A model generated the notes under the pieces. The model saw only the letters and a list, made by a program, of their open reading frames with translations, was not told the DNA's origin and did no database searches. The translations under genes and the position numbers were made by a program. From Nitrososphaera viennensis EN76 (GTDB lineage Archaea; Thermoproteota; Nitrososphaeria; Nitrososphaerales; Nitrososphaeraceae), in the NCBI RefSeq assembly GCF_000698785.1, contig NZ_CP007536.1:2220001-2252000 (forward strand): 32,000 nt of DNA. The letters are read 5' to 3'. Shown piece after piece: positions 585-29,523 of this stretch (the stretch's first letter is position 1; each line of letters begins with the position of its first letter).

Positions 585-1343
585 ATGATGCTGCGGCAGC
601 AGGAACTGGAGCGTGCCTTGCACGATGCAGTAAGGGCTGTCTTGCCGGAAAAAAATGTCGCAGTCGCGTTTTCCGGCGGGGTGGACAGCACGCTCTTGTC
701 TGTCATCTGCCGCGACCTTGGCAAGCAGGTGACGCTTGTGACGGTGGGGTTTCCCGGCTCGCATGACATCTCCTTTTCAAAAGAAGTTGCGTCAAAGATC
801 GGCCTGCCGCATAAAGTGGTCGAGCTTGACCGTCTTGATTTCAAAAAAGACCTCGCGCACGTCCTGCAGACCGTGACATGCGGCAACACCTCTCATGTCG
901 AAAACTGCATCGCGTACTATTACATCGCGCAGGCTGCCGGCAAACTCGGCCTTTCGGTGGTGGCAAGCGCCAACGGCTGCGACGAGCTTTTCTGCGGCTA
1001 CAATGGCTACCGGGTAGTATATGACAAGGGCGAGCCTGCCATAATGGAGTACATGGAGTCCAAGATAAAAAACGAGCTTGTGCTGGTGCAGGAAATATCT
1101 GCCGTCGCAGCCGAGTTCTCGGTGCAGGTGCGCCAGCCCTTCCTTTCTGACGGATTTGTCGAGTTTGCAAAAAACAAGGTGCCCGTGGACCAAAAGATCA
1201 GGGGGGCAAATGACATGACACGAAAGCACGTCCTGCGCCAGGCCGCCCTTTCCCTGGGAGTGCCGGAAGAGTCGGCTCTCAAGCCAAAAAAGGCGCTGCA
1301 GTACGGCTCGCTCATACACAAGAACTACAAAGGCATCCGCTAG
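585..1343 (+). CDS. PP-loop (N-type ATP pyrophosphatase) family protein, asparagine-synthase-C-terminal-like
   Basis: It carries the SGGVDS PP-loop motif (AFSGGVDSTLL) near the N-terminus and ANGCDELFCGYNGY, which resembles the asparagine synthetase GxGxDElFgGY block. 252 aa with an ATG start. Confidence 0.85.
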   Translation: MMLRQQELERALHDAVRAVLPEKNVAVAFSGGVDSTLLSVICRDLGKQVTLVTVGFPGSHDISFSKEVASKIGLPHKVVELDRLDFKKDLAHVLQTVTCGNTSHVENCIAYYYIAQAAGKLGLSVVASANGCDELFCGYNGYRVVYDKGEPAIMEYMESKIKNELVLVQEISAVAAEFSVQVRQPFLSDGFVEFAKNKVPVDQKIRGANDMTRKHVLRQAALSLGVPEESALKPKKALQYGSLIHKNYKGIR

Positions 1344-4047: not shown

Positions 4048-5055
4048 CTAATGGAAAGAACCCAGCCAGTCGCGTATTGCAGAAATGAATCTCGCTCTGG
4101 ATTCTTCAGAGTATTTCGGGGAGTCCTGGTCAAAAAACATGGCGTCGTAGAACCAGTGGTCGCAGTCAAGCACCTTCAACTCCTTGTTCTGGGTGCGAAG
4201 TAGTTTAAGATACTCTTCGGACACTTGGAGATACACGTTCCTGTCCTTTTGTCCGTGCAGGAGGAGAACCGGGTCTACAATGTCTGCAAGCTCGGCAACC
4301 TTGCTGTTACGCGTTGCCATGATGTCGACCAGAAACCTGTACGAGTATTCTGTGTTCACCATTTTCTCGCGCACAACAACCTTCTCAAATTCCTCCCCGC
4401 TTATTTTCGCATATTGCGGCAGCACCTTCATCATGTCTGTGGTGCTGCGCGGAGTGAATAGCCGGCGCAATAATAGGTGGATGAACATGCCTGTGCTGGG
4501 CTCGGTGTCTGACCTCTTGATGTTGCCTATCCGTATGTACGGGCACATTATTATCAAGCCGTCCACGCTGTTCTTGAAGGAATGCGCGTACCAGAGGGCG
4601 AAGGTGGAGCCCATGCTGTGGGCCATTATGAACACCCGCGTCCCGCTTCTTTTCAGGTCGGTGACGATCTGGTTGATGGACTGGAGGCATTTCTCAAAAT
4701 CCAGATCCCCTCTTGGACCTTCTGATTCTCCGTGGCCCGGCAGGTCCATGCTCAGCACGTTATATCCTGCCTGGGACAGCTTTGTCCCGACATAGGTGAA
4801 TATCCTTGCGTCGGACGGTATGCCGTGGATGCAAAGGATCGTATCGTTTTTTGGATCCTGCGATGGAAACTCGATAACGCTTATCTTGCCGCTCGCAGTC
4901 TGGTAGTAACGATGATGATGGTGATGATAAGTCAAATAGAGGATCTCCCGCCCCTGCCCCTTCTTGTTATGTGTGTGGACAGCTTTGGCATAAGCATTCT
5001 GTTTACCGATTTGAATACCGGTATATTTTCCGCTGTCAGCTGCTTTTCTTTCCAA
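4048..5055 (-). CDS. alpha/beta-fold hydrolase
   Basis: HG oxyanion motif (LCIHGIPSD), LPGHGESEG, nucleophile elbow AHSMGS, and a C-terminal LDCDHWF candidate catalytic His. The start is uncertain: the track start at 5055 is TTG, and the N-terminal 60 aa (including HHHHH) may be partly untranslated. It overlaps the 3' end of the upstream methyltransferase gene by 20 nt. Confidence 0.8.
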   Translation of the reverse strand: MERKAADSGKYTGIQIGKQNAYAKAVHTHNKKGQGREILYLTYHHHHHRYYQTASGKISVIEFPSQDPKNDTILCIHGIPSDARIFTYVGTKLSQAGYNVLSMDLPGHGESEGPRGDLDFEKCLQSINQIVTDLKRSGTRVFIMAHSMGSTFALWYAHSFKNSVDGLIIMCPYIRIGNIKRSDTEPSTGMFIHLLLRRLFTPRSTTDMMKVLPQYAKISGEEFEKVVVREKMVNTEYSYRFLVDIMATRNSKVAELADIVDPVLLLHGQKDRNVYLQVSEEYLKLLRTQNKELKVLDCDHWFYDAMFFDQDSPKYSEESRARFISAIRDWLGSFH

Positions 5056-5857
5056 TCACGCTGAAAAACCGCGCATAGGTTACAAAGCTGTCTTTCTTTC
5101 TAGAAAGCTGCTTTAGGTCCCTGAACATCTTGTCATACTCGCTTTCCTTCATCACGCCATGCTGCAGGATCGCCGGCTTTAGGCTGTCTGCTATCCTCCA
5201 CCCAAGCGAACAGAGTGGCTCGTTGCCCATCATCAGGCAAGGCGCATAGCATTCTACGCTTGCATGAAGCGATTCCTCTACTGCCATCTTGTACAGCTTT
5301 CTGCCTGCAAGCGGGTCGCCCCCTGATTTTCTGACCAGAGTTACAAACGCCTCTCTGAGCGTGTCAACGCTTTCTTCGTGCGGGTGGGATAGCCACGAGT
5401 CCGGAGAATGATCAAGCTCTTGGATTATCACCGTTCCGCCGTCCCTGACCATGTCCTTCATTGCCCTGACTGCCTGCTTGGGATCCTTCAGGTGCACGAA
5501 CATGAACCTCGAAAATGCAAGATCAAACTCGCCGCCCTTTGCCTGCGATGGTGATGGTGATGGTGACAGTATGTCTTGGTGGACAAAGCGGACATTGGGA
5601 AAGGTGTTGACGGTGCGGCAGTACTGCAGATAGTTGTCATCCACGTCTATGCCTGTAACATGCCCTTCTGTGCCTACTATCTGGGCCATCAGGCGAGTGA
5701 CGGATCCAGAGCCTGAACCGACGTCCGCGCAATTCATGCCTTTTCCTATCCCTGCCTTTAACAGGGCATCTCGCGAAAAGGGCTCAAAAAATGACGCCTG
5801 GATGTCCAGCCTTTCGATCTCGCTTTTTCTGTTGCCAAGGACATAGCTGTCGGACAT
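5036..5857 (-). CDS. class I SAM-dependent methyltransferase
   Basis: Motif I is CADVGSGSGSVT, the post-I acidic residue is in GIDVD, and the typical N-terminal SEIERLDIQ is present. ATG at 5857; the track's GTG at 5893 is an alternative start. Confidence 0.85.
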   Translation of the reverse strand: MSDSYVLGNRKSEIERLDIQASFFEPFSRDALLKAGIGKGMNCADVGSGSGSVTRLMAQIVGTEGHVTGIDVDDNYLQYCRTVNTFPNVRFVHQDILSPSPSPSQAKGGEFDLAFSRFMFVHLKDPKQAVRAMKDMVRDGGTVIIQELDHSPDSWLSHPHEESVDTLREAFVTLVRKSGGDPLAGRKLYKMAVEESLHASVECYAPCLMMGNEPLCSLGWRIADSLKPAILQHGVMKESEYDKMFRDLKQLSRKKDSFVTYARFFSVIGKKSS

Positions 5858-6050: not shown

Positions 6051-6278
6051 TTGATATGCCTGATCGCCAGCCTCATATCCGTGCTGGCGTCAACAACCAA
6101 GCTTGATGTCTTGAAAATAAGTCCGATTTCAGAGCAGGTGGCCCGCTTGCAGGTGATTTCTTGCGATCTCTGCGGCTCGCAAAAGGCATCCCATGATGTT
6201 TATGTCAAGGGCGCAGTCGAAGACGTGCCCATGCTAAAGAGATGCTGCGACGGCTGCAAGTCGCTTCTCATCCAGTAA
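6051..6278 (+). CDS. possible small zinc-ribbon protein
   Basis: CDLC...(27 aa)...CCDGC cysteine pairs. The only start is TTG or GTG, and it converges on and overlaps the pitA 3' end by 11 nt. Weak call. Confidence 0.3.
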   Translation: MICLIASLISVLASTTKLDVLKISPISEQVARLQVISCDLCGSQKASHDVYVKGAVEDVPMLKRCCDGCKSLLIQ

Positions 6279-7278
6279 GCGCTTTTATCGCCCACATGCA
6301 CGCTGCCGCTATTGCGGCGCTTGCCGGTATCGTTATCACCCACGCATAGATTATCCTCTTTCCGAGGCCCCACCTGACTGCCGAGAACCTCTTTGTCGCG
6401 CCGACGCCCATTATTGCGCCGGAAATAGCATGCGTCGTGCTCACCGGTATGCCGAGCCACGCCATCGAAGTCAGGATGGCGCCGCCGCCTGTCTCTGCGC
6501 AGAACCCCTGGTACGGCTTTAGGTTTGTCAGCCGGAACGCCATGGTCTTGACTATCCTCCAGCCTCCAAAGAACGTGCCAAGCGCGATGGCAGCCGCCGC
6601 GCTTATTATCACCCACAGCGGGACGACGAATTCTTTCGAGTTTAGCAGGCCGCCTGCAATCAGGAGCGCCGTTATGATGCCCATGGTCTTTTGCCCGTCG
6701 TTTGCGCCGTGCGTCAGCGAGAAAAACGCCGACGATGCTATCTGCAGCCTGCCAAACACCCTGTTGACCTTGCCGGGCACCTTCCTGCGCAAAAAGAACA
6801 TTATCGCAAGCGCAAAGCCTCCTGCGACTGCAAAGCCCATGGCCGGCGACACCACCATGAACGTGAGCACTTTTTCAACGCCGGAAAACACCACGGCCTG
6901 CAGGCCTCCGACAAAGAGCGCCGAGCCTACCAGGCCGCCGATGAGCGCGTGGCTGCTTGACGACGGCAGGCCGAACCACCACGTTATGAGGTCCCACGCT
7001 ATTGCGCCAAGGAGCCCCGCCAGTATGACGTCCACCGTCGAAAACTCGGGCATGATGATGCCCTTTCCCACCGTCGCGGCCACGGCCGTGCCAAAGATGA
7101 ACGGGCCGGTAAAGTTGGCCGCGGCTGCAATCCCGACGGCATGGAGCGGCCTGAGCACCCTGGTGCCGACGACGGTCGCAATAGAGTTTGCCGCGTCGTG
7201 AAAGCCGTTTACAAAATCAAAAAACAGCGCCGCGCCGATTGCCCCGTAAACCACTAGGATTATGCTCTGGTCGGCCAC
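6268..7278 (-). CDS. pitA: inorganic phosphate transporter, PiT/PitA family
   Basis: N-terminal FDFVNGFHDAANSIATVVGT and internal SLTHGANDGQKTMG are the two PHO4/PiT signature repeats. The protein is highly hydrophobic. 336 aa with a GTG start. Confidence 0.92.
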   Translation of the reverse strand: MADQSIILVVYGAIGAALFFDFVNGFHDAANSIATVVGTRVLRPLHAVGIAAAANFTGPFIFGTAVAATVGKGIIMPEFSTVDVILAGLLGAIAWDLITWWFGLPSSSSHALIGGLVGSALFVGGLQAVVFSGVEKVLTFMVVSPAMGFAVAGGFALAIMFFLRRKVPGKVNRVFGRLQIASSAFFSLTHGANDGQKTMGIITALLIAGGLLNSKEFVVPLWVIISAAAAIALGTFFGGWRIVKTMAFRLTNLKPYQGFCAETGGGAILTSMAWLGIPVSTTHAISGAIMGVGATKRFSAVRWGLGKRIIYAWVITIPASAAIAAACMWAIKALTG

Positions 7279-7287
7279 TTTTGATCC

Positions 7288-7926
7288 TCAACCGTATTTC
7301 AGGCCGATGTCCTCAAACGTGTCGGCGACGTCCTGGCACCTGTTGACCGCGTCTTCCAATTGCAGGTATATTTCCTTGAACTTGATTATCTCTATCGCGT
7401 CGCTGGTCTCGAACAGTTCTGCAATCGCAAGCCTGTAGATGGTGTCGGCCTCGTGCTCGTACTTGTTGATGTTCCTGCAGTGCTCCACCAGCTCTGCAGA
7501 GTTTTTGAAACCTCGAAGGCGCGTCATCAGCAGGTGCACTTCCTGCGTGGCCGAAAGCAGGATCTTGGCAAGCTCTATCATGTACGGGGTCGGCCTGGTT
7601 ATCTTGAAGAGCACGAACCTGTCTGCCGCGCCGTCGATATAGTCCAGTATCTCGTCCACTTCGCTTGTCAGTTTCGAAATGTCCTCCCTGTCGAGGGGCG
7701 TGACAAACGTCTTGTCCATTATGAGGTATATGCCGTGGGCTATCTCGTCGCCCCTGTGCTCGATGTCCTTTATGTTGACCTTGCGCTCGCCGACGTTGTC
7801 AAAACTTGAAACGAGGTCCACGAGGGCGTTGGCGGCCTTGAGAACGTTTGCGCCCTGCTCCTCGAGCGCGTTGATGATCTCTTTGTCGTTGGAGCGAATC
7901 CAAGAGAGAAAGCCACCGCCTGCCAT
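7288..7926 (-). CDS. DUF47 / PhoU-like Pit accessory protein
   Basis: IEHRGDEIAHGIYLIMDKTFVTPLDREDISKLTSEVDEILDYID matches the DUF47 (COG1392) core as I remember it. It lies 9 nt upstream of pitA, the classic pairing. Confidence 0.85.
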   Translation of the reverse strand: MAGGGFLSWIRSNDKEIINALEEQGANVLKAANALVDLVSSFDNVGERKVNIKDIEHRGDEIAHGIYLIMDKTFVTPLDREDISKLTSEVDEILDYIDGAADRFVLFKITRPTPYMIELAKILLSATQEVHLLMTRLRGFKNSAELVEHCRNINKYEHEADTIYRLAIAELFETSDAIEIIKFKEIYLQLEDAVNRCQDVADTFEDIGLKYG

Positions 7927-22231: not shown

Positions 22232-23109
22232 ATGGCTCTTGAAGAGTATGAATATGCCCTGCAGCAGGCGCGCCTTGCACACGGTGAAGTGAAAAAGTGG
22301 ATAATCTATGCAGGCGAGCAGCTGGAAATAGCCGGCGTCCAGAAGGAGAAAATATCCACAAAATTGCGAAATGACCTGCCGGGCGTCTCGGCCGATTACA
22401 TAAGCCAGATCTGTAGCCAGATGGGGTGGACGGACAGGCGTTTTCCCCCGGGGTTGAGAAAACTAAGCCTGAAAATAGTTCCACTCCTTCTGCTTCTTCA
22501 GAGCAGCCGCAACAAGTCCACAATGATGATAATAACAAGGCAGCAGCGGAGGAGGAGCCTGACAAGGCAAGGTGCAGCAAGGAAAACCAGCCCTATATCG
22601 ACCACCTGCAGAGAAAGATCGAGTTTCTGCAGGACGTGCAAAAGAAGCTCCGCGACAGGCCATTTCTGTCCCTGCTTGAGAAAAAGCAGTACGACGAGTA
22701 CATCATGCTTGCAGACAGGGCGGAAAAGCTTGCGCGGGAGGCCTGGGATGCAAGGCAGACCATACCTGTTGCCACGCAGTTTTACCTTGCGCAGATAGTG
22801 GCGACCTGTACAATCAAGCACGGCGCAAGCGAGTACGTTTCAAAGGTCAAGGACCTTTTTGGGCTGACGAGCAAGCAGGTCACCAAGACGCTCAAGGGAG
22901 TAGTCCGCGACGTGCACTGCCTCTACGAGCCGACAAACAGGGCAGAGGCCCTGATGGACGGCTTTTACGGCAGGCCATGCGAAAAGTGCGGCAACTGGCG
23001 GGTGAAATGGGAAAACGGCATGTGCCATTGCTTCCACTGCGACAGCGACTACCGCGCAAAAGCCGAGAGGCTGCCGCTGGCAAGGGAACAGGGCGAGTGG
23101 TCCAACTAG
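22232..23109 (+). CDS. TerS-like DNA-binding protein (N-terminal HTH, C-terminal 4-Cys ribbon), readable only with a -1 frameshift at 22447-22453
   Basis: The upstream frame reads MALEEYEY...KISTKLRNDLPGVSADYISQICSQMGWTDRRFPPG (HTH-like). The protein-like sequence then continues in the -1 frame (GVEKTKPENSS...CEKCGNWRVKWENGMCHCFHCDSDY) to the TAG at 23107-23109. Its position directly upstream of TerL suggests a small terminase. Track ORFs 22217..22798 and 22426..23109. Confidence 0.6.
22447..22453 (+). promoter_or_regulatory. X_XXY_YYZ slippery heptamer C_CCG_GGG within a T4C5G4 run
   Basis: In the upstream frame the codons are cgt ttt ccC CCG GGG. Tandem -1 slippage (CCG to CCC, GGG to GGG) lands exactly in the downstream frame (next codon gtt = V of GVEKTK). 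Confidence 0.4.
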
Positions 23110-23118
23110 CTCTTTTGG
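23107..23118 (+). promoter_or_regulatory. degenerate copy of provirus gene-boundary motif (TAGCTCTTTTGG)
   Basis: It embeds the TerS-like stop codon and lies 20 nt before the TerL ATG at 23127. It lacks the TT of the consensus. Confidence 0.35.
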
Positions 23119-23126
23119 TTTGCAAA

Positions 23127-24497
23127 ATGCCATCAAAATCTGAGGTACAGGATGATAATTCTAAAATACAGGCCCTGAAGGGCAAGCCATTCTGGATCTG
23201 GAGCAAGAAAAAGCATGCAAAAAAATCCAAAGACTGCTGTTGCTTTAACCACATTGTCGGCCTGCCCGTCAAAAACGGCAGGGCCATGCCTATGTTTGAC
23301 TATGAGAAAAAGATCCACGACCTGCTTGCAAAAAAGGGAAGAAAAGAGAAACAGAAGGACAAGCACCTGTGGGTGAAAAAAGCCACAGGGCTTGGGGTGA
23401 CTGAACTCCTGCTGAGGTACATGGCCTGGCTGTGCTACCGTGACGATTCGTGCAGGGGCGCGCAGATGTGCATCGTCACCGGCCCGAACAAGGAGCTTGC
23501 CAAGGGGCTCATAACCCGGCTAAAGGAGATCTGCAAGGACGTTGAAAAGCTGGAGTCAAAAGAGACGGTGGTCGTCCTGAACGGCTGCAGGATAGAGGCT
23601 TTTCCGTCGCACCACCTCGACGCGATGCGCGCCCTTGCCAGGCCGGCGTTCATACTCCTTGACGAGGCCGACTTTTTCCCGCCAAAAGAGCAGAAAAACG
23701 CCCGCGACGTCGCAGAGCGCTACATAGCCAAGAGCGACCCGTACATAGTATTGGTGAGCACGCCCAACATGCCCGGCGGCCTGTACGAGAGCATAGAAAA
23801 GGAGGCAGAAGCGCAGTGCATCTACCACAGGCTCCACCTTGATTACAAGGCCGGGCTGAACAAGATCTACACAAGAGCCGAGATTGAAAAGGCGCGCAAG
23901 TCGCCAAGCTTTGAAAGAGAGTATAACTTGAAGTACGGCTACGGCACAGGCAACATTTTTCCCTACCAGCTTGTGGACGCCTGCGTCATGGAATATGACC
24001 CTGCGCTGCAAAAGGGCGCATCGGACAGGGTGCTTGCCGTGGACCCTGCCTACGGTTCCAGCAAGTTTGCCTTGGTAGGCATTGAGCGGCTGGACGAAAT
24101 GCTGTACGTCAAGGAGGCAAGGCAGTACGAGCGCCCGTCTCCTGCCGCCATGCTCGAGGTGGTTGCCGAGTTTGCCCGCCAGTACCCGACTGTGCTCGTA
24201 GACTCGGCGCATCCGGGGCTAATCAGGGACTTGCAGGAAAAAGGGGTGGACGCACAGCCGGTAAACTTTGCAAAAAATCTTGCCGACATGACAAGTGCGG
24301 CGGCGCGGGTCGTAACGGAAAAGAAGGTAAGGATACACCCTGCCTTTACGGATCTGCAGTACCAGCTAAAGGCGGCAGTGTACAATGATAAAGGCCACCC
24401 GGACAAGCGCAAACTGTCGTTTGACCTTGGCGATTGTATGTTGATGCTTGCCTATTATTGCCTCCGCCAAGATGGATTATTCATGGCCGAGATCTGA
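23127..24497 (+). CDS. terL: terminase large subunit
   Basis: Walker-A-like KKATGLGVTE, Walker B AFILLDEADFF, coupling motif LVSTPN, and nuclease-domain acidic motifs VLAVDPAYGSSKFALVG and VLVDSAHPG. ATG at 23127; the track ORF start at 22977 is an off-frame overlap with the upstream gene. Confidence 0.9.
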   Translation: MPSKSEVQDDNSKIQALKGKPFWIWSKKKHAKKSKDCCCFNHIVGLPVKNGRAMPMFDYEKKIHDLLAKKGRKEKQKDKHLWVKKATGLGVTELLLRYMAWLCYRDDSCRGAQMCIVTGPNKELAKGLITRLKEICKDVEKLESKETVVVLNGCRIEAFPSHHLDAMRALARPAFILLDEADFFPPKEQKNARDVAERYIAKSDPYIVLVSTPNMPGGLYESIEKEAEAQCIYHRLHLDYKAGLNKIYTRAEIEKARKSPSFEREYNLKYGYGTGNIFPYQLVDACVMEYDPALQKGASDRVLAVDPAYGSSKFALVGIERLDEMLYVKEARQYERPSPAAMLEVVAEFARQYPTVLVDSAHPGLIRDLQEKGVDAQPVNFAKNLADMTSAAARVVTEKKVRIHPAFTDLQYQLKAAVYNDKGHPDKRKLSFDLGDCMLMLAYYCLRQDGLFMAEI

Positions 24498-25292: not shown

Positions 25293-26705
25293 GTGAACCT
25301 GCGTTTCTGGCGGCCAAAGCAAGAGGTCTATGGCGTCACGCTTTCAGAGCCGAGTACTAACTCGTCGTCCCAGGTCTCTGACTATTCGCAGTACCAGCTG
25401 TACGTCAGGCCCGAGGTCGACTTTCAGACGTGCTACGAATACTACCGCACAATAGGCAAGGTGCAGAACGCCGTCGAGTCGTACGTCGCCGAGATCCTGT
25501 CGCGGGACTGGTACTTTGAGGGCGCGCAGGAAGGCGTGCAGGCGTGCGAAGAGTGGGAGGACCGGTTCAACCTCTCGCGCATCATCGAATACATTGTCCG
25601 CGACTGGCTCGTATGCGGAAATTCCATCATCGGCATCTCTGACTGGCAGCCCGTGCAAATATCGTCGATAGCAGGCGTAAGGCGCAGCCCGTACGGGATT
25701 GCAGAGCAGTTCGTGCAGGTAGTCAACGGCCGGGAGGTGCCTCTTGACGCGTCGCGCTTTATCCACACGCAGTACATCGAGGTAAACCGCGAGGCGTGGG
25801 GCATCGGCATGTTCCACTCGCTCCTGACAACGTTTGACTATGGCAGCAGGAAAAGGTCGCTTCCGCACCTGGAGATCTACCGGCGGCAGATACAGCTTTT
25901 CTACAAGATACTGGAAAGGTACGGCTCGCCGGTGACCGTGTGGTTCTTTGAGAACGTGGCCAAGGCCGAGTTTGACCGGCAGGTCGAGGAGCTGCGGGCG
26001 CTGGAGCCGGGCGACAGGCGCATACTTTCAAAAAAGGTCGAGATAGCGACAGAGACTGTCGACGCGCGGGGCAACCTCATCAACGCGACGTCGCCGGTGA
26101 TAAACCAGGAAATCGAGGCAGGGTTGCAGACGTCTGCGAACCGGCTGATAACGCAGCCGAGCGCGATGGCAGATGCCAGAATAGGATCAGAGTACGATGA
26201 CTCGAAAACTACTGCGATCATGGAAAAGATCAGGCGCGTAATGAATGTCTTGATAATTCCAAAGATAACGTTAGCAAGAGTGGAGTTCAAGTGGGGCAAA
26301 AAAGACAACTTTGAATTTGATTTCAATCAGTTATTGCAGGCCAAGAGCGCCGGATTTGTTTCTTCAGAAGAAGGCAGGGCGATCCTGCAGTCTGTTGGCT
26401 GGAAACTGGATGACAATCTTTTCAACGCACAGCAGCAATTACAAAAGCAGGAAGACTTTCGTTTTTTAAATGAAAGAGTGCGGCATATAATTTGCAGCAC
26501 TCTTCAGGAATTCAATCCATACCACGATGAACGCGGCCGTTTTGCTAGTGCTACAGGCGCCACTAATTTCTCTGTCGTAGCAACAAAAAGACCAAGAAAT
26601 TCAAAAGTCAACATAAATGAGCCCATTATACAATCTGAAACACCTACTGAGCAACACAGAATTAGAGCAAGAAAAAGTGATACAAAACTTTCCCAACAAG
26701 ATTAG
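25293..26705 (+). CDS. portal protein (by position and size) with AT-rich C-terminal extension containing NPYHDERGRF
   Basis: A 470-aa ORF downstream of TerL and upstream of protease-MCP. The C-terminal third (from ~26170) is AT-rich. The last ~30 codons overlap the RelA/SpoT-like ORF in another frame. Confidence 0.7.
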   Translation: MNLRFWRPKQEVYGVTLSEPSTNSSSQVSDYSQYQLYVRPEVDFQTCYEYYRTIGKVQNAVESYVAEILSRDWYFEGAQEGVQACEEWEDRFNLSRIIEYIVRDWLVCGNSIIGISDWQPVQISSIAGVRRSPYGIAEQFVQVVNGREVPLDASRFIHTQYIEVNREAWGIGMFHSLLTTFDYGSRKRSLPHLEIYRRQIQLFYKILERYGSPVTVWFFENVAKAEFDRQVEELRALEPGDRRILSKKVEIATETVDARGNLINATSPVINQEIEAGLQTSANRLITQPSAMADARIGSEYDDSKTTAIMEKIRRVMNVLIIPKITLARVEFKWGKKDNFEFDFNQLLQAKSAGFVSSEEGRAILQSVGWKLDDNLFNAQQQLQKQEDFRFLNERVRHIICSTLQEFNPYHDERGRFASATGATNFSVVATKRPRNSKVNINEPIIQSETPTEQHRIRARKSDTKLSQQD

Positions 26706-27309
26706 TGAAGAAACTGCTACAGAGCAGATCTACAAAGCAGAAAAGATAAGAGAGCAGTTTGTAAATTTAGCCGACAGGCAAATTGATGATATTTCCGCAG
26801 CATATCCTGATGCAGAGGTGACTGCTAGAATAAAAGATAGTTCGAGTATGGTTGAAAAAGTTTTGCGCAAGCCGAATCAATACAACGATGTATCGCAATT
26901 ACAAGATACACTAGGTGTTAGAGTAGTTACTAAAGATCTGGATGAACTTGAAACGATCACATCAGATCTAACAACTAGATACGAAGTTGTATCTGAGGTT
27001 AGTTATGTTGATGTACCAAAGCTAGATGGCTATAGAGGCTATCATCTAAATGTAAAAGACAAATACACAGGTCTTGTGAATGAGATACAGATAAGAACAA
27101 AGAATCAAGACAAGTGGGCGGATCTTATGCACAATAGAGTTTACAAACCGTCAAAGGAATTAGAAGAGAGAGTCAGAATGAATCAAGATTCAATATACAA
27201 ATATGCAAATGAACTTTCAGACTATTATTACAGACTTGATTCAGGCGAGAAAAAAGTTAAAAAACCTGAAATATCTAAAATAATTAGAGACATACTAGGA
27301 GATGACTAA
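26617..27309 (+). CDS. RelA/SpoT-homolog synthetase-domain protein (small alarmone synthetase / toxSAS-like)
   Basis: Ordered signature blocks are RIKDSSSMVEKVLRK, DTLGVRVV, DGYRGYHLNVK and NEIQIRTKNQDKWADLMHNRVYK (R-x-K-x3-S-x3-K; D-x2-G-x-R; G-Y-R-x-x-H; E-x-Q-x-R-T-x5-W-A-x3-H-x3-Y-K). 230 aa, single domain. The ATG at 26617 is directly preceded by an in-frame TAA. Confidence 0.9.
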   Translation: MSPLYNLKHLLSNTELEQEKVIQNFPNKISEETATEQIYKAEKIREQFVNLADRQIDDISAAYPDAEVTARIKDSSSMVEKVLRKPNQYNDVSQLQDTLGVRVVTKDLDELETITSDLTTRYEVVSEVSYVDVPKLDGYRGYHLNVKDKYTGLVNEIQIRTKNQDKWADLMHNRVYKPSKELEERVRMNQDSIYKYANELSDYYYRLDSGEKKVKKPEISKIIRDILGDD

Positions 27310-27520
27310 CACGGATAATTTCATCACAAAGATGTTAGATGATGTTGACAGGCATACACCCAAAACAGGCTATAATCTTGTTGTGATAGATGATTTCGAG
27401 CCTTTTGGTGAGCAGCTCTATACCTTAGGACACTACGAGACCTATGAAGCAGCTCTTGCAGCCCAAGAACAACTTAGTGGCAACACTGTAATTTATCCAC
27501 ACAAGCGCGAAAAAGAATGA
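27302..27520 (+). CDS. small acidic protein translationally coupled to the RSH gene (candidate antitoxin or immunity protein)
   Basis: Its ATG at 27302 overlaps the RSH stop (gATGACTAA, an 8-nt overlap). 72 aa: MTNTDNFITKMLDDVDRH...LGHYETYEAALAAQEQLSGNTVIYPHKREKE. Confidence 0.7.
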   Translation: MTNTDNFITKMLDDVDRHTPKTGYNLVVIDDFEPFGEQLYTLGHYETYEAALAAQEQLSGNTVIYPHKREKE

Positions 27521-27729
27521 TTGAAAAGCATCCTAGAAATATTATCTATGCTAATAAGCCTGACTGCCCTGAAATAGTACGTAAAACGATCGGATGTATG
27601 GAGGAAGACTGACACATGGTTGAAGAAACTTGGCTTGACAAGAAGGGCATTTCGACACGTATGATGAAGCTTTAGAGGCTCAGAAAAAAATACAAAGGCA
27701 ATTCGGTAATTTATGGACCTGATGATTGA
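27517..27729 (+). pseudogene. decayed tandem duplicate of the 72-aa gene
   Basis: Its ATG at 27517 overlaps the preceding TGA (aATGA). The reading is interrupted by a TGA at 27610-27612 and by frame changes, one beside an A7 run. Pieced across frames it reads ...VEETWLDKKGHFDTYDEALEAQKKIQ.GNSVIYGPDD, against LGHYETYEAALAAQEQLSGNTVIY in the intact copy. Confidence 0.5.
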
Positions 27730-27758
27730 ATAACCTTTGGCCCGTAGAACTCGTACAG

Positions 27759-27772
27759 TAGTTCTCTTTTTT
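27759..27772 (+). promoter_or_regulatory. provirus gene-boundary motif TAGTTCTCTTTTTT
   Basis: It lies 34 nt before the protease-MCP GTG at 27793. Confidence 0.6.
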
Positions 27773-27792
27773 CTAGCCTCATAATCTCATGC

Positions 27793-29523
27793 GTGAAACC
27801 TCAAGTCAAGATCGAGTTTGTCACATCTGCCAAGGAAAAGAAAAGGATTGCCGGCATACTTGCAATCCCACGCATTTCAAGAAACGGCAATCTGTACCTG
27901 CCCGAAGAACTGGAAAAAGCGCACGGCAGAACGGTCCCCGTACTATGGAACCACGAGGGCAGCCCAAAGAGCGCCAGCGAGCCTGTACGCCAGTCCGACG
28001 TCATTGGCGCAATGCGCCTTTTCTGGGACTCTGACCTGATGCAATTAAAGTACGAGGCCGAGGTGGACCGCGACCTGCCGGAAATCCCACTGCATACCTC
28101 GCTGGGCGCGTTTTTCGAGCGCGAGGACCATGTCTGCGGAAACACGCGCTGCTACTCTGTTCCCCGCGGCCTGCGCTTTGTGGAAGCGTCGCTAACCCCT
28201 ACGCCAGGCATCCCGGAAACAACAGTCAAGATCCTAGAGAATTTTGCGTGCAGGCAATGCCGGCTTAGTTCTCTTACAAGCGAAGCATCCAACCGGGGTA
28301 TCATGTCTTCTTCAAACAACGATTCAGGTGGCGGACAGGATACGTCGTGCATCACAAGCAAGCAGTTCCAGGACGGCATCAAGAGCCTGATAGACGCAAT
28401 GGGCAGGCGCTTTGCAGACAAGCAGCAGCTGCAAACAGAGGCAGCGGCAAGGGCGCCTTCGAGCATGGTCGACGACTCGAACACGCGCGCAAGGCAGGAG
28501 TCGTACAACCGCGTGGTAGAGTTTTTCCAGCGCGTCAAGGAAAACCCAAAGGATGTCTCGTTCCCGGCAGTCTCGTGGAACATTGACAAGAACGAGTACC
28601 TTGGAAGGTGGGGCTACAACATCAGCCCGCGCGCCAAGAAAGAGGCAGTGACGATAACCGCCGGCGACATGGGGCAGGTCTTTTCAAAGCAGATCCTAGT
28701 CGTCCCGGGCGGCAGGATGAAGATTCCTGTGAGGCAGTACTGCAACTTTACTGAAATCCCTGCAGGAAACGACAGGGCACATTTCTACACGATAGGCGCA
28801 TTTGACTTTGGCACGATAACCGAGGGGACAGAGCCCACAAACGTGTCGCAGACCGTGAGCAAAAAGACGGCCACGCCTTCAATACGCGGGGCGGTCCAGC
28901 GCGTCGGCTACTCGCAGGTAGAGAACGCGCCTTTCGGCCTCGTGGATGCGATAAACGAGGCGATGGTCCTTGCCTCGATAGATGATGAAGCTTCCGACCT
29001 GCTGTCGACAACGTACGACGCCATAACGCCCACCAACTGGGTCCGCGCAGACACCGGAGCTGCGATAACCTTGGACGATGTTGCAAGCCTGACGTTCAAG
29101 CGCGAGGGGTTGCTTGCGGCAAAGCGCCTGATAGCGCAGCAGGGCCACGACGTGAGCCCCGGCAACCTCGTGCTTTTCATGCACCCAAAGGCGTACCAGG
29201 AGCTCCTGCTTGACACCAACCTGAACAACTTTTACCAGTACGCCCGGCCGGAGATAACTGCGACCGGCATACTTGAGCAGATATATGGAGTCGACATCGT
29301 GATCGCCGATCAGGTAAAGGCACAGGACAACACCACAAACGACACGTACCGCAACGTTCTTGCGGTCAAGGGCGTGGCCTTTGGCATGGCCTCTGCAAGG
29401 AACGTGACTATGGAGGCCCAGCGCAGGAACGAGACCCAGCAGGTGGTGCTGTCAGGGACGCACAGGGTAAAATCGGTAGTCATTGACGAGACTGCAAGCT
29501 GCCGCATATCGTCGGCTCAGTAA
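27793..29523 (+). CDS. prohead protease - scaffold-like linker - HK97-fold major capsid protein fusion
   Basis: The N-terminal ~150 aa fit the HK97-type prohead protease (RTVPVLWNHEG...VIG; TSLGAFFE...RFVEASLTPTPGIPETTV). They are followed by a Gly/Ser linker and the helical QFQDGIKSLIDAMGRRFADKQQLQTEAAA. The C-terminal ~330 aa are MCP-like in size and position. GTG start at the motif-defined distance. Confidence 0.8.
   Translation: MKPQVKIEFVTSAKEKKRIAGILAIPRISRNGNLYLPEELEKAHGRTVPVLWNHEGSPKSASEPVRQSDVIGAMRLFWDSDLMQLKYEAEVDRDLPEIPLHTSLGAFFEREDHVCGNTRCYSVPRGLRFVEASLTPTPGIPETTVKILENFACRQCRLSSLTSEASNRGIMSSSNNDSGGGQDTSCITSKQFQDGIKSLIDAMGRRFADKQQLQTEAAARAPSSMVDDSNTRARQESYNRVVEFFQRVKENPKDVSFPAVSWNIDKNEYLGRWGYNISPRAKKEAVTITAGDMGQVFSKQILVVPGGRMKIPVRQYCNFTEIPAGNDRAHFYTIGAFDFGTITEGTEPTNVSQTVSKKTATPSIRGAVQRVGYSQVENAPFGLVDAINEAMVLASIDDEASDLLSTTYDAITPTNWVRADTGAAITLDDVASLTFKREGLLAAKRLIAQQGHDVSPGNLVLFMHPKAYQELLLDTNLNNFYQYARPEITATGILEQIYGVDIVIADQVKAQDNTTNDTYRNVLAVKGVAFGMASARNVTMEAQRRNETQQVVLSGTHRVKSVVIDETASCRISSAQ

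Follow-up and report, generated by a model that had tools for sequence, protein, structure and literature searches.

RelA/SpoT-type toxins carried in virions are known from bacterial phages, in MuF/Apk2 polymorphic toxins and in polyvalent proteins; archaea have been noted as poor in them, and the passages of the polyvalent-protein survey by Iyer, Burroughs, Anand, de Souza and Aravind (2017; PMC5512222) that treat archaea speak of a "particular paucity" of such proteins. In its passages on virion proteins, effector domains fused to the portal protein or to MuF are thought to be packaged and injected; portal fusions are listed there for PBECR, 2H and InPase, and RelA/SpoT fusions only with MuF. 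Here we describe a RelA/SpoT-type gene in the head module of Nvie-Pro1, a provirus of the soil ammonia-oxidising archaeon Nitrososphaera viennensis, which is represented by the stretch of 32,000 nucleotides analysed here (the window). To judge by the proteins in which its relatives occur, its closest described systems are the MuF/Apk2 polymorphic toxins and the polyvalent proteins, not the bicistronic toxSAS toxin-antitoxin modules.

As in MuF/Apk2 systems (PMC5576092, PMC12226406), a RelA_SpoT-fold domain is found as the variable C-terminus of a head-internal protein from the packaging/head module, the C-terminal cassettes are polymorphic, and the toxin gene lies beside the portal gene of a prophage, with a small ORF (<150 aa) directly 3' of it. 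The dual immunity of Apk2, consisting of IapK and Aph1 (PMC12226406), is mirrored in two relatives of our locus by an HD_4 gene plus the small partner. In contrast to MuF/Apk2, the carrier in Nvie-Pro1 is the portal itself, with no MuF domain, the host is an archaeon, and the fusion is broken by a frameshift. Apk2 is a (p)ppApp synthetase with the signature RYT / GxN / YH, whereas the window has GVR / GYH / IR, which is guanosine-type or mixed. Comparison by Pfam and PDB fold, with IapK outside its range, tied the partner to no described immunity protein.

The passages of PMC5512222 on polyvalent proteins also describe effectors placed on portal or MuF proteins and list RelA/SpoT among them. 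The junction linker of our portal is shared with ART-PolyVal and NUDIX-GNAT-ART polyvalent proteins, and several relatives of the RelA clade are true polyvalent proteins. Unlike these, Nvie-Pro1 has one effector rather than many, together with an explicit predicted immunity partner and displaced orphan cassettes, which points to the logic of polymorphic toxins rather than that of plain polyvalent proteins. The toxSAS (FaRel, FaRel2, PhRel/Gp29-Gp30, PhRel2, CapRel) use the synthetase fold as a growth-arresting toxin, a role that we infer here, with a neighbouring and often overlapping neutraliser, prophage carriage, and SAH-type hydrolases as universal antidotes (bioRxiv 10.1101/575399). They are however free-standing single-domain proteins, or fused to their antitoxin (CapRel), while members of the window's clade are normally C-terminal domains of structural or polyvalent proteins. 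Finally, RelQ and RelP of Firmicutes are the closest solved sequences and structures and have all catalytic motifs in common with the Nvie-Pro1 protein, but the locus is viral and toxin-like and not a housekeeping context.

A RelA/SpoT module and its partner in the provirus head module

The head module of Nvie-Pro1 has the order TerL, portal(-RelA), 72-aa ORF and protease-MCP (Table 1). The RelA/SpoT ORF lies between the Mu-type portal gene and the protease-capsid fusion gene, as the original prediction had placed it, and the region is AT-rich as claimed (GC 0.38 at 26472-27790, compared with 0.58 for the portal and capsid genes), though low GC begins at about 26200, within the portal ORF. The gene has been seen before: GenBank FR725450.1 (Nitrososphaera phage Pro-Nvie1) has labelled it "protein with N-terminal Rel_Spo-like domain" since 2011, and in RefSeq it is a "RelA/SpoT domain-containing protein", called by NCBI as 210 aa from GTG 26677. 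The novelty claimed for it among archaeal viruses is therefore weakened, since the sighting by itself is already known and the refuting condition set in the original prediction, a family already catalogued there, applies in part; the literature searched, a set that did not extend to Krupovic et al. 2011 and Kerou et al. 2016, contained no analysis of the gene.

Table 1. Coordinates, in the window, of the features of the Nvie-Pro1 effector locus and its surroundings.
Feature	Position	Strand	Evidence
Large terminase subunit (TerL), start of the head/packaging module	22977..24497	+	phrog_2 and phrog_38, E 1e-22; GenBank nvie-Pro1-2
Portal ORF as now terminated, 470 aa	25293..26705	+	PF06074, E 8.5e-8
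Junction ("pre-toxin") motif NPYHDERGRF, portal frame	26514..26543	+	Conserved in P0196-P0203
A5 run with 1-nt insertion, +1 frameshift between portal and RelA frames	26672..26676	+	Comparison with L006
RelA/SpoT-type nucleotide pyrophosphokinase (predicted toxin) module, 230-aa ORF	26617..27309	+	Pfam, profiles, alignment, AlphaFold2, Foldseek
Partner gene, predicted immunity protein/antitoxin, 72 aa	27302..27520	+	Relatives' profile; adjacency to RelA
Orphan 3' end of displaced older RelA gene, YANKPDCPEIVRKTIGCMEED*	27547..27612	+	Extreme C-terminus of family profile, E 0.0013
Degenerate partner remnant of displaced cassette, with internal 98-nt deletion and 1-nt indel	27616..27729	+	DNA identity to L110
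Protease/major capsid protein fusion gene, bounding the cassette region downstream	27793..29523	+	phrog_267 major head protein; GenBank nvie-Pro1-8; Krupovic 2019, PMC6563490

The ATG at 26617 is a mechanical start. Comparison with relatives places the beginning of homologous coding in the RelA frame at GTG 26677 (homologous coding 26677-27306), and the first 20 codons of the ORF read out of frame a sequence that is conserved in the portal frame. The Pfam domain RelA_SpoT (PF04607) matches the ORF with 72.7 bits (gathering cutoff 27 bits; E 3.8e-20) over aa 71-180 (nt 26827-27156), covering profile positions 2-112 of 113, and a profile made from the relatives only, with the window left out, matches it at E 3.5e-68. 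All five synthetase motifs were found: RxKxxxSxxxK (R71/K73/S77/K81), DxxGxR (D97/G100/R102), GYRxxH (G138-H143), ExQxRT (E156/Q158/R160/T161) and WxxxxHxxxYK (W167/H172/Y176/K177); the four blocks quoted in the original prediction are present. Eight residues (R71, K73, K81, D97, Y139, E156, Q158 and Y176) are invariant across 60 relatives, among them the D of DTLGVR and the E of EIQIRT, and this alignment revealed no loss of catalytic residues. The AlphaFold2 model is confident (pLDDT 96.7, pTM 0.90), and its best Foldseek matches in PDB are RelP (6ewz) and RelQ (5dec/5ded), at E 2e-10 to 1e-9 and TM of about 0.6. Profile, alignment and model thus confirm the ORF as a member of the RelA/SpoT synthetase superfamily, with pyrophosphate transfer as its predicted activity.

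In sequence the family stands nearer to RelQ/RelP than to toxSAS families that have been validated. Against PDB sequences, the family profile scores RelQ/RelP at 1e-24 to 1e-26, CapRel at 5e-12 and FaRel2 at 1e-9, and barely sees Tas1 (E 0.28); with phmmer the ORF matches RelQ/RelP at 1.5e-13, with identity of about 25%. The signatures GVR (syn2), GYH (syn3, for which the family consensus is SxH) and IR (syn4) suggest a (p)ppGpp-type product, with (p)ppApp as product or the tRNA 3' end as target being possible alternatives; this prediction is weak, since swaps of syn motifs failed to switch substrate specificity (Paulet et al.).

The small neighbouring ORF is acidic (pI 4.7), as had been noticed, and overlaps the RelA ORF by 8 nt. 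A partner profile built without the window matches it at E 7e-26, and its AlphaFold2 model (pLDDT 91.3) is a small alpha/beta fold, for which a search against PDB returned nothing better than E 0.79. Profile scans of Pfam, PADLOC, NCBIfam and PHROG gave zero matches, and the partner belongs to an undescribed family. It adjoins the RelA module in all virus-type loci examined (the window, L006, L007/L008, L011/12, L013/14, L015, L106, L107 and L110). In L018 and L020 a gene of the HD_4 family, which is a small-alarmone-hydrolase family, stands directly 3' of the portal-RelA gene, between the RelA module and the partner (37.5 bits; cutoff 27.2). A conserved adjacent partner gene, as in toxSAS modules, is found in every virus-type locus examined, and neutralisation of the enzyme is its predicted function.

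Portal fusion, frameshift and a displaced cassette

Most relatives of the RelA module form the C-terminus of a portal, MuF or polyvalent virion protein, with total lengths of 349-1848 aa. Three members of the same clade (P0031, P0041 and P0096; 36-41% identical) are single polypeptides with Phage_portal_3 and a C-terminal RelA_SpoT domain, and others are MuF-InPase-RelA, InPase-Zeta-RelA and ddrB-ParB-RelA polyvalent proteins; within the clade, MuF is confined to the more distant P0009, P0015 and P0078. Relatives from cultured phages are only 25-32% identical. A scan of the GTDB species genomes with two peptide patterns gave no confirmed clade member, a weak negative as the window's own genome was also missed. 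For the metagenomic viral contigs L007-L015, Pfam and PHROG scans annotated few neighbours. A "GTP pyrophosphokinase" of Streptococcus phage Javan576, considered as a phage toxin, was rejected: it is part of a relQ-nadK-rluD operon of the host, with which the prophage record ends.

In Nvie-Pro1 the RelA module joins the portal's polypeptide, as it does in P0031, P0041, P0096 and P0196, only after removal of one base. At the A5 run the window reads AGA AAA A GTG where L006, which has a single frame through the site, reads AGG GAA GTA. By tblastx, both flanks of the site fall in one L006 frame and in different frames of the window, and the motif EPxIxxSxxPTxxH...YP, common to the relatives, straddles both window frames. 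The junction of portal, linker and RelA is also in frame in the sister provirus L109/L110 (backbone DNA 81-84% identical; portal protein P0196 71% identical). These comparisons show that the ancestral gene, as reconstructed, was a 671-aa portal-linker-RelA fusion, split by a 1-nt insertion in the A5 run. A sequencing error was considered and rejected: five independent Logan/ENA assemblies (20 contigs) all have the same site and gene calls, which match those of GenBank. Between the window and L006, pS is 0.82-0.97, which is saturated, and pN is 0.27 in the linker, 0.21 and 0.33 in the two RelA parts and 0.11 in the partner, the better-conserved gene; low pN at saturated pS indicates that all parts, among them the linker no longer in frame with RelA, have long been under purifying selection. 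The description of the protein as single-domain without HD, TGS or ACT domains stands as to the absence of those domains, but the single-domain state itself is the result of the insertion and not ancestral. What had been taken for a free-standing toxSAS gene is the C-terminal part of a fusion with the portal protein, now broken by a frameshift.

The Portal_Mu domain occupies aa 48-345 of the portal ORF (nt 25434-26327), and the last ~125 aa form a linker to which the RelA module was originally joined. No MuF domain (PF04233, PF06152, MuF3/4) was detected in the portal ORF, the portal tail (26292-26675) or the RelA ORF. The portal proteins of Nitrososphaeria viruses range from 372 to 671 aa, with variable C-termini. 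Within one portal family (66-82% identity; P0196-P0203), the conserved motif EFNxxHDxxxGxF is followed by at least three different C-terminal domains (RelA, one that contains HExxH, and a third, unknown one) or by none. In the window the backbone homology to L110 stops at 26528, inside the junction motif (blastn breakpoint), and homology to the L006 cassette begins at 26472-26508. A conserved carrier with variable C-terminal domains at a junction motif is the arrangement described for polymorphic toxins (Zhang et al. 2012).

Further features of polymorphic toxins are the downstream partner gene and, beyond it, the remains of another cassette. Window positions 27548-27643 have 93.8% DNA identity to the L110 sequence at the end of the toxin and the start of the partner, and positions 27648-27737 are 92.2% identical to L110 6606-6694, with L110 6508-6605 missing from the window. 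By HMM alone the second partner copy is not significant (E 0.087 to 1.2), and we accepted it because of its DNA identity to L110. The stump shows that the present RelA cassette displaced an older RelA-partner cassette, of which this 3' part was left behind.

Proposed role and alternative explanations

In our view, a thaumarchaeal head-tail (pro)virus here carries a polymorphic effector locus on its portal, with the RelA ORF as the toxin half, and we give this reading a probability of roughly 0.6. By comparison with relatives, the ancestral gene comprised a portal domain, a linker with EFNxxHDxxxGxF and a C-terminal RelA/SpoT-type 3'-pyrophosphokinase, followed by the overlapping gene of the small acidic partner, and cassettes of toxin plus partner are swapped by recombination at the junction motif. 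From the precedents of MuF/Apk2, polyvalent proteins and toxSAS, the enzyme domain would be carried on a virion-internal protein and enter the cell with the DNA; packaging and injection of the portal's C-terminal extension in Nitrososphaeria viruses are thus assumed by analogy. Once inside, the enzyme would move pyrophosphate from ATP onto a purine nucleotide, and the draining of nucleotide pools would block growth, which does not require a stringent-response machinery. The partner would shield the producer cell or lysogen, with binding of the enzyme as the most likely means. In present-day N. viennensis the insertion has uncoupled the enzyme from the portal, leaving a 210-aa catalytic module that is intact and either silent, or made alone at a low level and restrained by the partner. 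Among the roles listed in the original prediction, the capsid-delivered effector is the one favoured by the evidence, its delivery being modelled on those precedents. The head-tail viruses of soil ammonia oxidisers would then follow the same weapon logic as bacterial phages, with a variable toxin on a structural carrier, an immunity gene and cassette displacement; here the carrier is the portal protein, and the predicted immunity family is undescribed. With this locus it can also be tested whether archaeal cells are poisoned by nucleotides of the (p)ppGpp or (p)ppApp type.

It is unlikely, but deserves the most serious attention among the alternatives, that the toxin gene is a pseudogene with no present function, within an element that is defective or domesticated (GTA-like), and that at most the partner is maintained. 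In Nvie-Pro1 neither att sites nor replication genes can be recognised, and it may be a remnant or a GTA-like element that was domesticated (PMC6563490). Not one of the four Nitrososphaera-type loci keeps its toxin ORF whole: besides the junction frameshift of the window, the L110 toxin has a mid-domain frameshift at an A7 run, the catalytic core of the L006 toxin is hit by a 171-nt deletion, and a JGI 3300071358 contig has only a 107-aa ORF 5' of the partner gene. Since each toxin ORF is interrupted, the toxin may be dead in all four; the partner gene is intact in the three other loci despite these independent disruptions, and its pN is lower than that of the toxin parts. Against a mere relic, the 210 codons past the frameshift of the window remain open, with neither a stop nor a second frameshift accumulated, and retain all invariant catalytic residues and a confident fold, and a strongly constrained, intact partner is most easily explained by a toxin that is still present and active, whether the provirus's own or an incoming one.

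We regard as rather improbable a classical type II toxSAS toxin-antitoxin pair, in which a free-standing SAS toxin and a labile antitoxin would act independently of the virion, in provirus addiction, in superinfection exclusion or in abortive infection. In favour of it, the overlapping genes form a conserved pair, PADLOC matches the ORF with its candidate model PDC-S33 only (1.2e-21), prophage precedents exist (e.g., PhRel Gp29/Gp30), and after the frameshift the window physically holds a bicistronic SAS plus small protein, called as a stand-alone 210-aa gene by NCBI. The stand-alone state is however derived, as conserved sequence continues upstream in the portal frame, and the great majority of relatives occur as the C-terminus within a larger virion or polyvalent protein. 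Moreover, the family lies nearer to RelQ/RelP than to CapRel or FaRel2, the partner resembles no known antitoxin by Pfam, PADLOC or PDB fold, and the displacement of cassettes at the locus is typical of polymorphic toxins.

Programmed recoding, in which most ribosomes would end at 26705 and a rare +1 slip would give a few portal-RelA subunits per dodecamer, is very unlikely. Sub-stoichiometric cargo would be structurally sensible, by analogy with low-copy MuF-type proteins, and two related proviruses need a +1 shift at an A-run. These runs are however at different positions (A5 in the window, A7 in L110), and at the window's site neither L006 nor L110 has a shift of frame. The AT-rich cassette has many A5 runs (8 in 2.2 kb), AGT, the codon in the A site, is not rare but the joint most frequent Ser codon of the cassette, and a search for notable structure downstream of the A5 site found none; two 1-nt insertions in homopolymers match the prediction of random mutation.

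Least probable of all is an auxiliary gene for a RelQ-like (p)ppGpp synthetase that reprograms host physiology rather than poisoning it, for although housekeeping RelQ/RelP are the best sequence and structure matches and syn2/syn4 are of the guanosine type (GVR and IR, not RYT and YH), RSH enzymes are very sparse in archaea (PMC3153485), the NCBIfam RelQ equivalog scores 57 bits against a cutoff of 320, and the tightly linked neutralising-type partner or HD_4 hydrolase and the turnover of cassettes are hallmarks of toxins.

Chromosomal members of the partner family

The partner family is also found in solitary form. Among its best 80 matches, 79 are from genomes of Nitrososphaeria (thaumarchaea), with synteny at the genus level, and the family is conserved in Nitrosopumilus, Nitrosotalea, Nitrosotenuis and related genomes. 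In many ammonia-oxidising archaea these chromosomal genes are syntenic and have no RelA gene nearby, and the primary function of the family could accordingly be one other than immunity. A more far-reaching but doubtful idea is that ammonia-oxidising archaea as a group have retained on the chromosome, by vertical inheritance, an inhibitor of a RelA/SpoT-type toxin that viruses deliver. The partner would then be a lineage-wide innate antitoxin, and alarmone-type nucleotide warfare by way of polymorphic portals an ancient and major axis of conflict between head-tail viruses and their thaumarchaeal hosts, waged in a lineage that lacks a stringent response. If the host copies were such antidotes, they would constitute a new kind of archaeal antiviral defence gene; in any case, a family of ~70-aa proteins gains its first testable function. 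The partner copies linked to viruses are only slightly closer to one another than to the host copies.

The RelA/SpoT domain and its split from the portal

We found a significant match of the 230-aa RelA ORF to the Pfam RelA_SpoT profile (72.7 bits against a cutoff of 27, E 3.8e-20, aa 71-180). The closest solved sequences are RelQ/YjbM (1.5e-13), and a family profile built from distant relatives only recovers the ORF with an E-value of 3.5e-68. An AlphaFold2 model supplied with 60 relatives reached a pLDDT of 96.7 and a pTM of 0.90, with RelP and RelQ as top structural matches and CapRel next. The RelA/SpoT fold of the original prediction was thus borne out by profile and model, and the four conserved synthetase blocks it quoted are all present. 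Residues invariant in the family map to R71, K73, K81, D97, Y139, E156, Q158 and Y176 of the ORF, and the catalytic apparatus is therefore intact. All the sequence and fold criteria tested place the ORF in the RSH synthetase superfamily, with enzyme activity as a prediction.

The setting was also as first described, between portal and capsid genes, AT-rich and overlapping a small acidic ORF. The flanking genes encode a Mu-type portal (25293-26705, PF06074) and a protease-capsid fusion (27793-29523), GC is 0.38 at the cassette vs 0.58 in the flanking genes, and the RelA ORF shares 8 nt with a 72-aa acidic ORF (27302-27520, pI 4.7), hereafter the partner. The region is the provirus Nvie-Pro1. 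The RelA protein matches, at 100% identity, the entry [quoted passage not shown], which is called with 210 aa from GTG 26677. In GenBank FR725450.1 (Nitrososphaera phage Pro-Nvie1), nvie-Pro1-5 is the portal, nvie-Pro1-6 a “protein with N-terminal Rel_Spo-like domain”, nvie-Pro1-7 hypothetical and nvie-Pro1-8 the protease/major capsid protein; because of this annotation, the domain call is not new. A 2019 survey of thaumarchaeal mobile elements covers Nvie-Pro1 without naming RelA, ppGpp or alarmones; it detected no att sites or replication genes, and considers the provirus a possible remnant or domesticated GTA-like element (PMC6563490). Our literature search found no paper tying Nvie-Pro1 to alarmone enzymes. 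The novelty originally claimed is only partly right. As to the upstream terminase gene, its longest ORF starts at 22977 (506 aa); the GenBank start lies 150 nt downstream (23127) and gives 456 aa, a call repeated in independent assemblies.

An exhaustive HMMER search identified 2,426 relatives at E <=0.001, the best non-self relatives being only 37-41% identical. The best 150 of them are mostly longer proteins (349-1848 aa) with the RelA domain at the C-terminus. In the alignment, the conserved module of the family begins upstream of the window ORF, with the motif EPxIxxSxxPTxxH...YP, which in the window is split between the portal frame (...NEPIIQSETPTEQHRIRARK) and the RelA frame (VIQNFPNK...). 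In L006, a close relative of the cassette (~65% aa identity), the same junction is read through in one frame, and tblastx gave the two halves a shared frame there and separate frames in the window. The DNA at the split reads AGA AAA A GTG in the window vs AGG GAA GTA in L006, a 1-nt insertion; removing one base in silico yields a 671-aa portal-linker-RelA protein. These comparisons indicate that a portal fusion has been split and that the RelA gene is one of its two halves.

Programmed frameshifting at the A5 run of the split found no support: the cassette has many A5 runs, relatives do not share this site, the candidate A-site codon AGT is not rare but the joint most frequent Ser codon of the cassette, and a search for downstream structure 3' of the site gave nothing notable. 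An assembly error was ruled out, as five independent Logan/ENA assemblies (20 contigs) are identical in sequence and gene calls and the GenBank calls agree.

Fusions with an in-frame junction were found among relatives. Searching with the repaired protein brought up a family of portals from Nitrososphaera/Nitrososphaeria (pro)viruses, with named members from N. viennensis, Nitrososphaera sp. MAGs and “Nitrososphaeria virus YSH_1032793”. In its member P0196 (556 aa), whose portal shares 71% identity with that of the window, a single frame spans the linker (IQEFNSNHDSKTGQF...) and the EPIIVSTTPTKEH...VIKKFPG motif and leads on into the N-terminal half of RelA. P0196 is encoded on L109/L110, a sister provirus with 81-84% nucleotide identity over the terminase, portal and capsid genes. 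In other virus groups, three proteins (P0031, P0041, P0096) join Phage_portal_3 and a C-terminal RelA_SpoT domain of the same clade in one polypeptide. Further clade members are polyvalent proteins (MuF-InPase-RelA, InPase-Zeta-RelA, ddrB-ParB-RelA, MuF-HAD-RelA), and in the locus L009 one polyvalent RelA protein is encoded immediately after the portal gene.

Positions of features in the window and in related loci
Feature	Sequence	Position	Strand	Remark
RelA/SpoT ORF	window	26617-27309	+	all four sequence blocks present
1-nt insertion in A5 run	window	26672-26676	+	window vs L006 DNA
Orphan RelA tail	window	within 27548-27643		last 18 codons of L110-type gene (YANKPDCPEIVRKTIGCMEED*), 93.8% to L110
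Both ends of L110-type partner gene	window	27548-27643, 27648-27737		high-identity blocks; 98-nt internal deletion, 1-nt indel
A7 frameshift, sister provirus	L110 (Logan SRR28252203; L109 identical)	~6084-6090		TCAAAAAAACAG; downstream partner intact
171-nt loss	L006	~799-802		= window 26899-27069, DTLGVRVV through GYRGYH
HD_4 gene and partner-domain protein	L018	9015-11638		downstream of portal-RelA
HD_4 gene and partner-domain protein	L020	9773-12501		downstream of portal-RelA
Partner homologue, Nitrosotalea devanaterra	L087 = LN890280.1 (~1147590)	5001-5117		
Partner homologue, Nitrosotenuis chungbukensis	L082 = CP130341			

Variable portal C-termini and displaced cassettes

Within this one portal family (portal domains 66-82% identical), the C-terminal parts vary after the junction motif EFNxxHDxxxGxF[TA]SGGG. 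We found RelA in the window and P0196, an HExxH-motif domain in P0197, a third, shared domain of ~130 aa in P0198, P0199, P0201 and P0203, the linker only in P0202, and no extension in P0210. The non-RelA C-terminal domains had no match in a Pfam scan. The portal linker alone is also common to ART-PolyVal and NUDIX-GNAT-ART polyvalent proteins.

The backbone homology between the window and L110 ends at 26528, within the NPYHDERGRF motif (26514-26543). From 26529 to 27547, the RelA-partner cassette now in place shows only a remote relationship to that of L110; the alignment is confined to 27067-27267, at 67%. Homology returns in two short blocks that hold the orphan tail and the partner ends (the second block at 92.2%), and runs on from 27758 through the capsid gene. 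In the family profile, too, the orphan tail has a match, at the extreme C-terminal end (E 0.0013). Since an L110-like toxin tail and partner ends persist, the present cassette must have taken the place of an older one, of which an orphan stump remains. Zhang et al. in 2012 are said to have described displaced orphan cassettes as a hallmark of polymorphic toxin loci. The C-terminus of most relatives is PxCPxxVxxxxGC[LM]; both cysteines are lost in the active cassette of the window (27262-27306) and in L006 (KKPEISKIIRDILGDD), and the orphan tail retains both (27559-27600, KPDCPEIVRKTIGCM). Between partner and capsid gene, L110 carries two additional ORFs of 71 and 193 aa (6737-7803), absent from the window and without a Pfam match; comparing the two, this interval is a hotspot of variable content.

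Across four Nitrososphaera-type loci, the toxin gene is uninterrupted in none and the partner is intact in all. The toxin is interrupted by the junction frameshift in the window and by a separate +1 frameshift within the RelA domain in L110, where the junction is in frame. L006 has lost the catalytic core of the domain and retains a partner gene 82% identical to the window's. In the JGI 3300071358 contig, the portal (P0197) ends in another C-terminal domain and is followed by a 107-aa ORF and then by an 80%-identical partner. The simplest reading is that the dangerous gene is recurrently inactivated or uncoupled in resident elements and the antidote kept. In the window, the 210 codons past the frameshift stay open and catalytically complete, and residual stand-alone expression may make a de facto toxin-antitoxin pair. 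The L006 cassette comes after a short non-portal N-terminus, and the ORF that follows it resembles, by eye, an HK97 gp10-type head-tail gene.

The partner family in viruses and ammonia-oxidising archaea

The 72-aa partner had no match in Pfam, NCBIfam, PADLOC or PHROGs. It is confidently modelled as a small alpha-beta-beta-alpha-beta unit (pLDDT 91.3), for which the best PDB match was no better than E 0.79. A partner profile built without the window detects the window's ORF (E 7e-26), and in all virus-type loci examined it finds the partner domain beside the RelA module. The domain is a small ORF in L006, L007, L008, L011/12, L106 and L110, forms the N-terminus of a following larger protein in L013/14 and L015, and is oriented convergently to RelA in L107. 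In L018 and L020, soil phage contigs of ~100 kb with GC 0.59-0.65, the portal-RelA gene is followed by an HD_4 protein (small-alarmone-hydrolase family; 37.5 bits vs a cutoff of 27.2) and, next, by one that has the partner domain as its N-terminus. This pair of binder and hydrolase parallels IapK and Aph1 of the MuF toxin Apk2 (PMC12226406). At the other end, the C-terminus of this partner-domain protein (~700 aa) weakly matches PI3/PI4 kinases.

The comparison of the window with L006 shows saturation at synonymous sites (pS 0.82-0.97) and low non-synonymous differences, of 0.27 in the linker, 0.21 and 0.33 in the RelA parts, and 0.11 in the partner. Linker, RelA parts and partner have all spent most of their evolution as coding sequence, even the linker, whose frame no longer agrees with that of RelA, and the partner is the most constrained part of the cassette.

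A scan with the partner alignment, using one genome per GTDB species, identified 185 relatives. The best 80 (L026-L105) comprise 79 from Nitrososphaeria, including Nitrosotalea, Nitrosopumilus, Nitrosotenuis, Nitrosopelagicus, Nitrosomarinus and Nitrososphaera, and one from a Myxococcales MAG. All 80 are stand-alone ORFs covering the whole domain (60-89 aa in 78), the 25 best-scoring ones with E 1e-21 to 1e-25, and we did not find a RelA homologue within 5 kb of any of the 80. Their neighbours are ordinary chromosomal genes (HAD hydrolase, TPR protein, MarR, proteasome subunits), with genus-level synteny: a Nitrosotalea-type neighbourhood in 20-26 of 50 loci, and conserved neighbourhoods in 5-8 loci of Nitrosopumilus and 5 of Nitrosotenuis. 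More stand-alone copies occur in a Nitrosopumilales defence island and beside an archaeal ribosomal-protein operon. The partner thus belongs to a small, conserved and uncharacterised family that is typical of ammonia-oxidising archaea. The RelA clade was not found in the GTDB species genomes by the patterns used, a negative weakened by the region seeming masked or absent there: the pattern SSMVEKVLRK, satisfied by the window itself, failed to return N. viennensis from this collection. Either ammonia oxidisers fixed an antidote to RelA toxins carried by viruses, or a host protein was taken over by viruses as an immunity factor; sequence distances between viral and host partner copies did not distinguish the direction of transfer.

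Classification and predicted product

In its working, the locus comes closest to polymorphic toxins of the MuF/Apk2 type and to polyvalent effectors fused to portal or MuF (PMC5576092, PMC12226406, PMC5512222). It lacks the MuF domain that defines Apk2, and shows the structural hallmarks of polymorphic toxin systems. The toxSAS toxin-antitoxin framing of the original prediction is only partly right, since toxSAS enzymes are free-standing and this one belongs to a split portal fusion. The bare RelA finding is already annotated and the mechanism has precedent; new here are that the virus is archaeal, that the portal serves as the polymorphic carrier, and that a predicted immunity family, so far undescribed, is also kept by hosts. 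Both the polymorphism of the portal and the partner family found across these archaea are new and can be put to the test.

Toxicity by consumption of ATP/GTP and inhibition of purine metabolism would need no stringent-response machinery. In archaea, RSH enzymes are very sparse (PMC3153485). Among solved enzymes, RelQ/RelP score best with the family profile (1e-24 to 1e-26), ahead of long RSH enzymes (1e-14 to 1e-20), with CapRel (5e-12) and FaRel2 (1e-9) below these and Tas1 far lower (0.28). Paulet et al. described signatures of guanosine vs adenosine 3'-pyrophosphokinases (syn2 AVR/RYT, syn3 SxH/GxN, syn4 IR/YH); the window's GVR, GYH (family consensus SxH) and IR are guanosine-type or mixed. 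The HD_4 hydrolase linked in relatives suggests a hydrolysable pyrophosphorylated product. Together, ranking, motifs and linked HD_4 favour a (p)ppGpp/pGpp-type product, with low confidence because Paulet et al. exchanged these motifs without switching specificity. The “GTP pyrophosphokinase” of Streptococcus phage Javan576 (L017, MK448987.1 39668-42034) was rejected as a phage toxin: it neighbours NAD kinase and RluD, as in the host relQ operon, and seems to be host DNA that the prophage prediction took in at its end.
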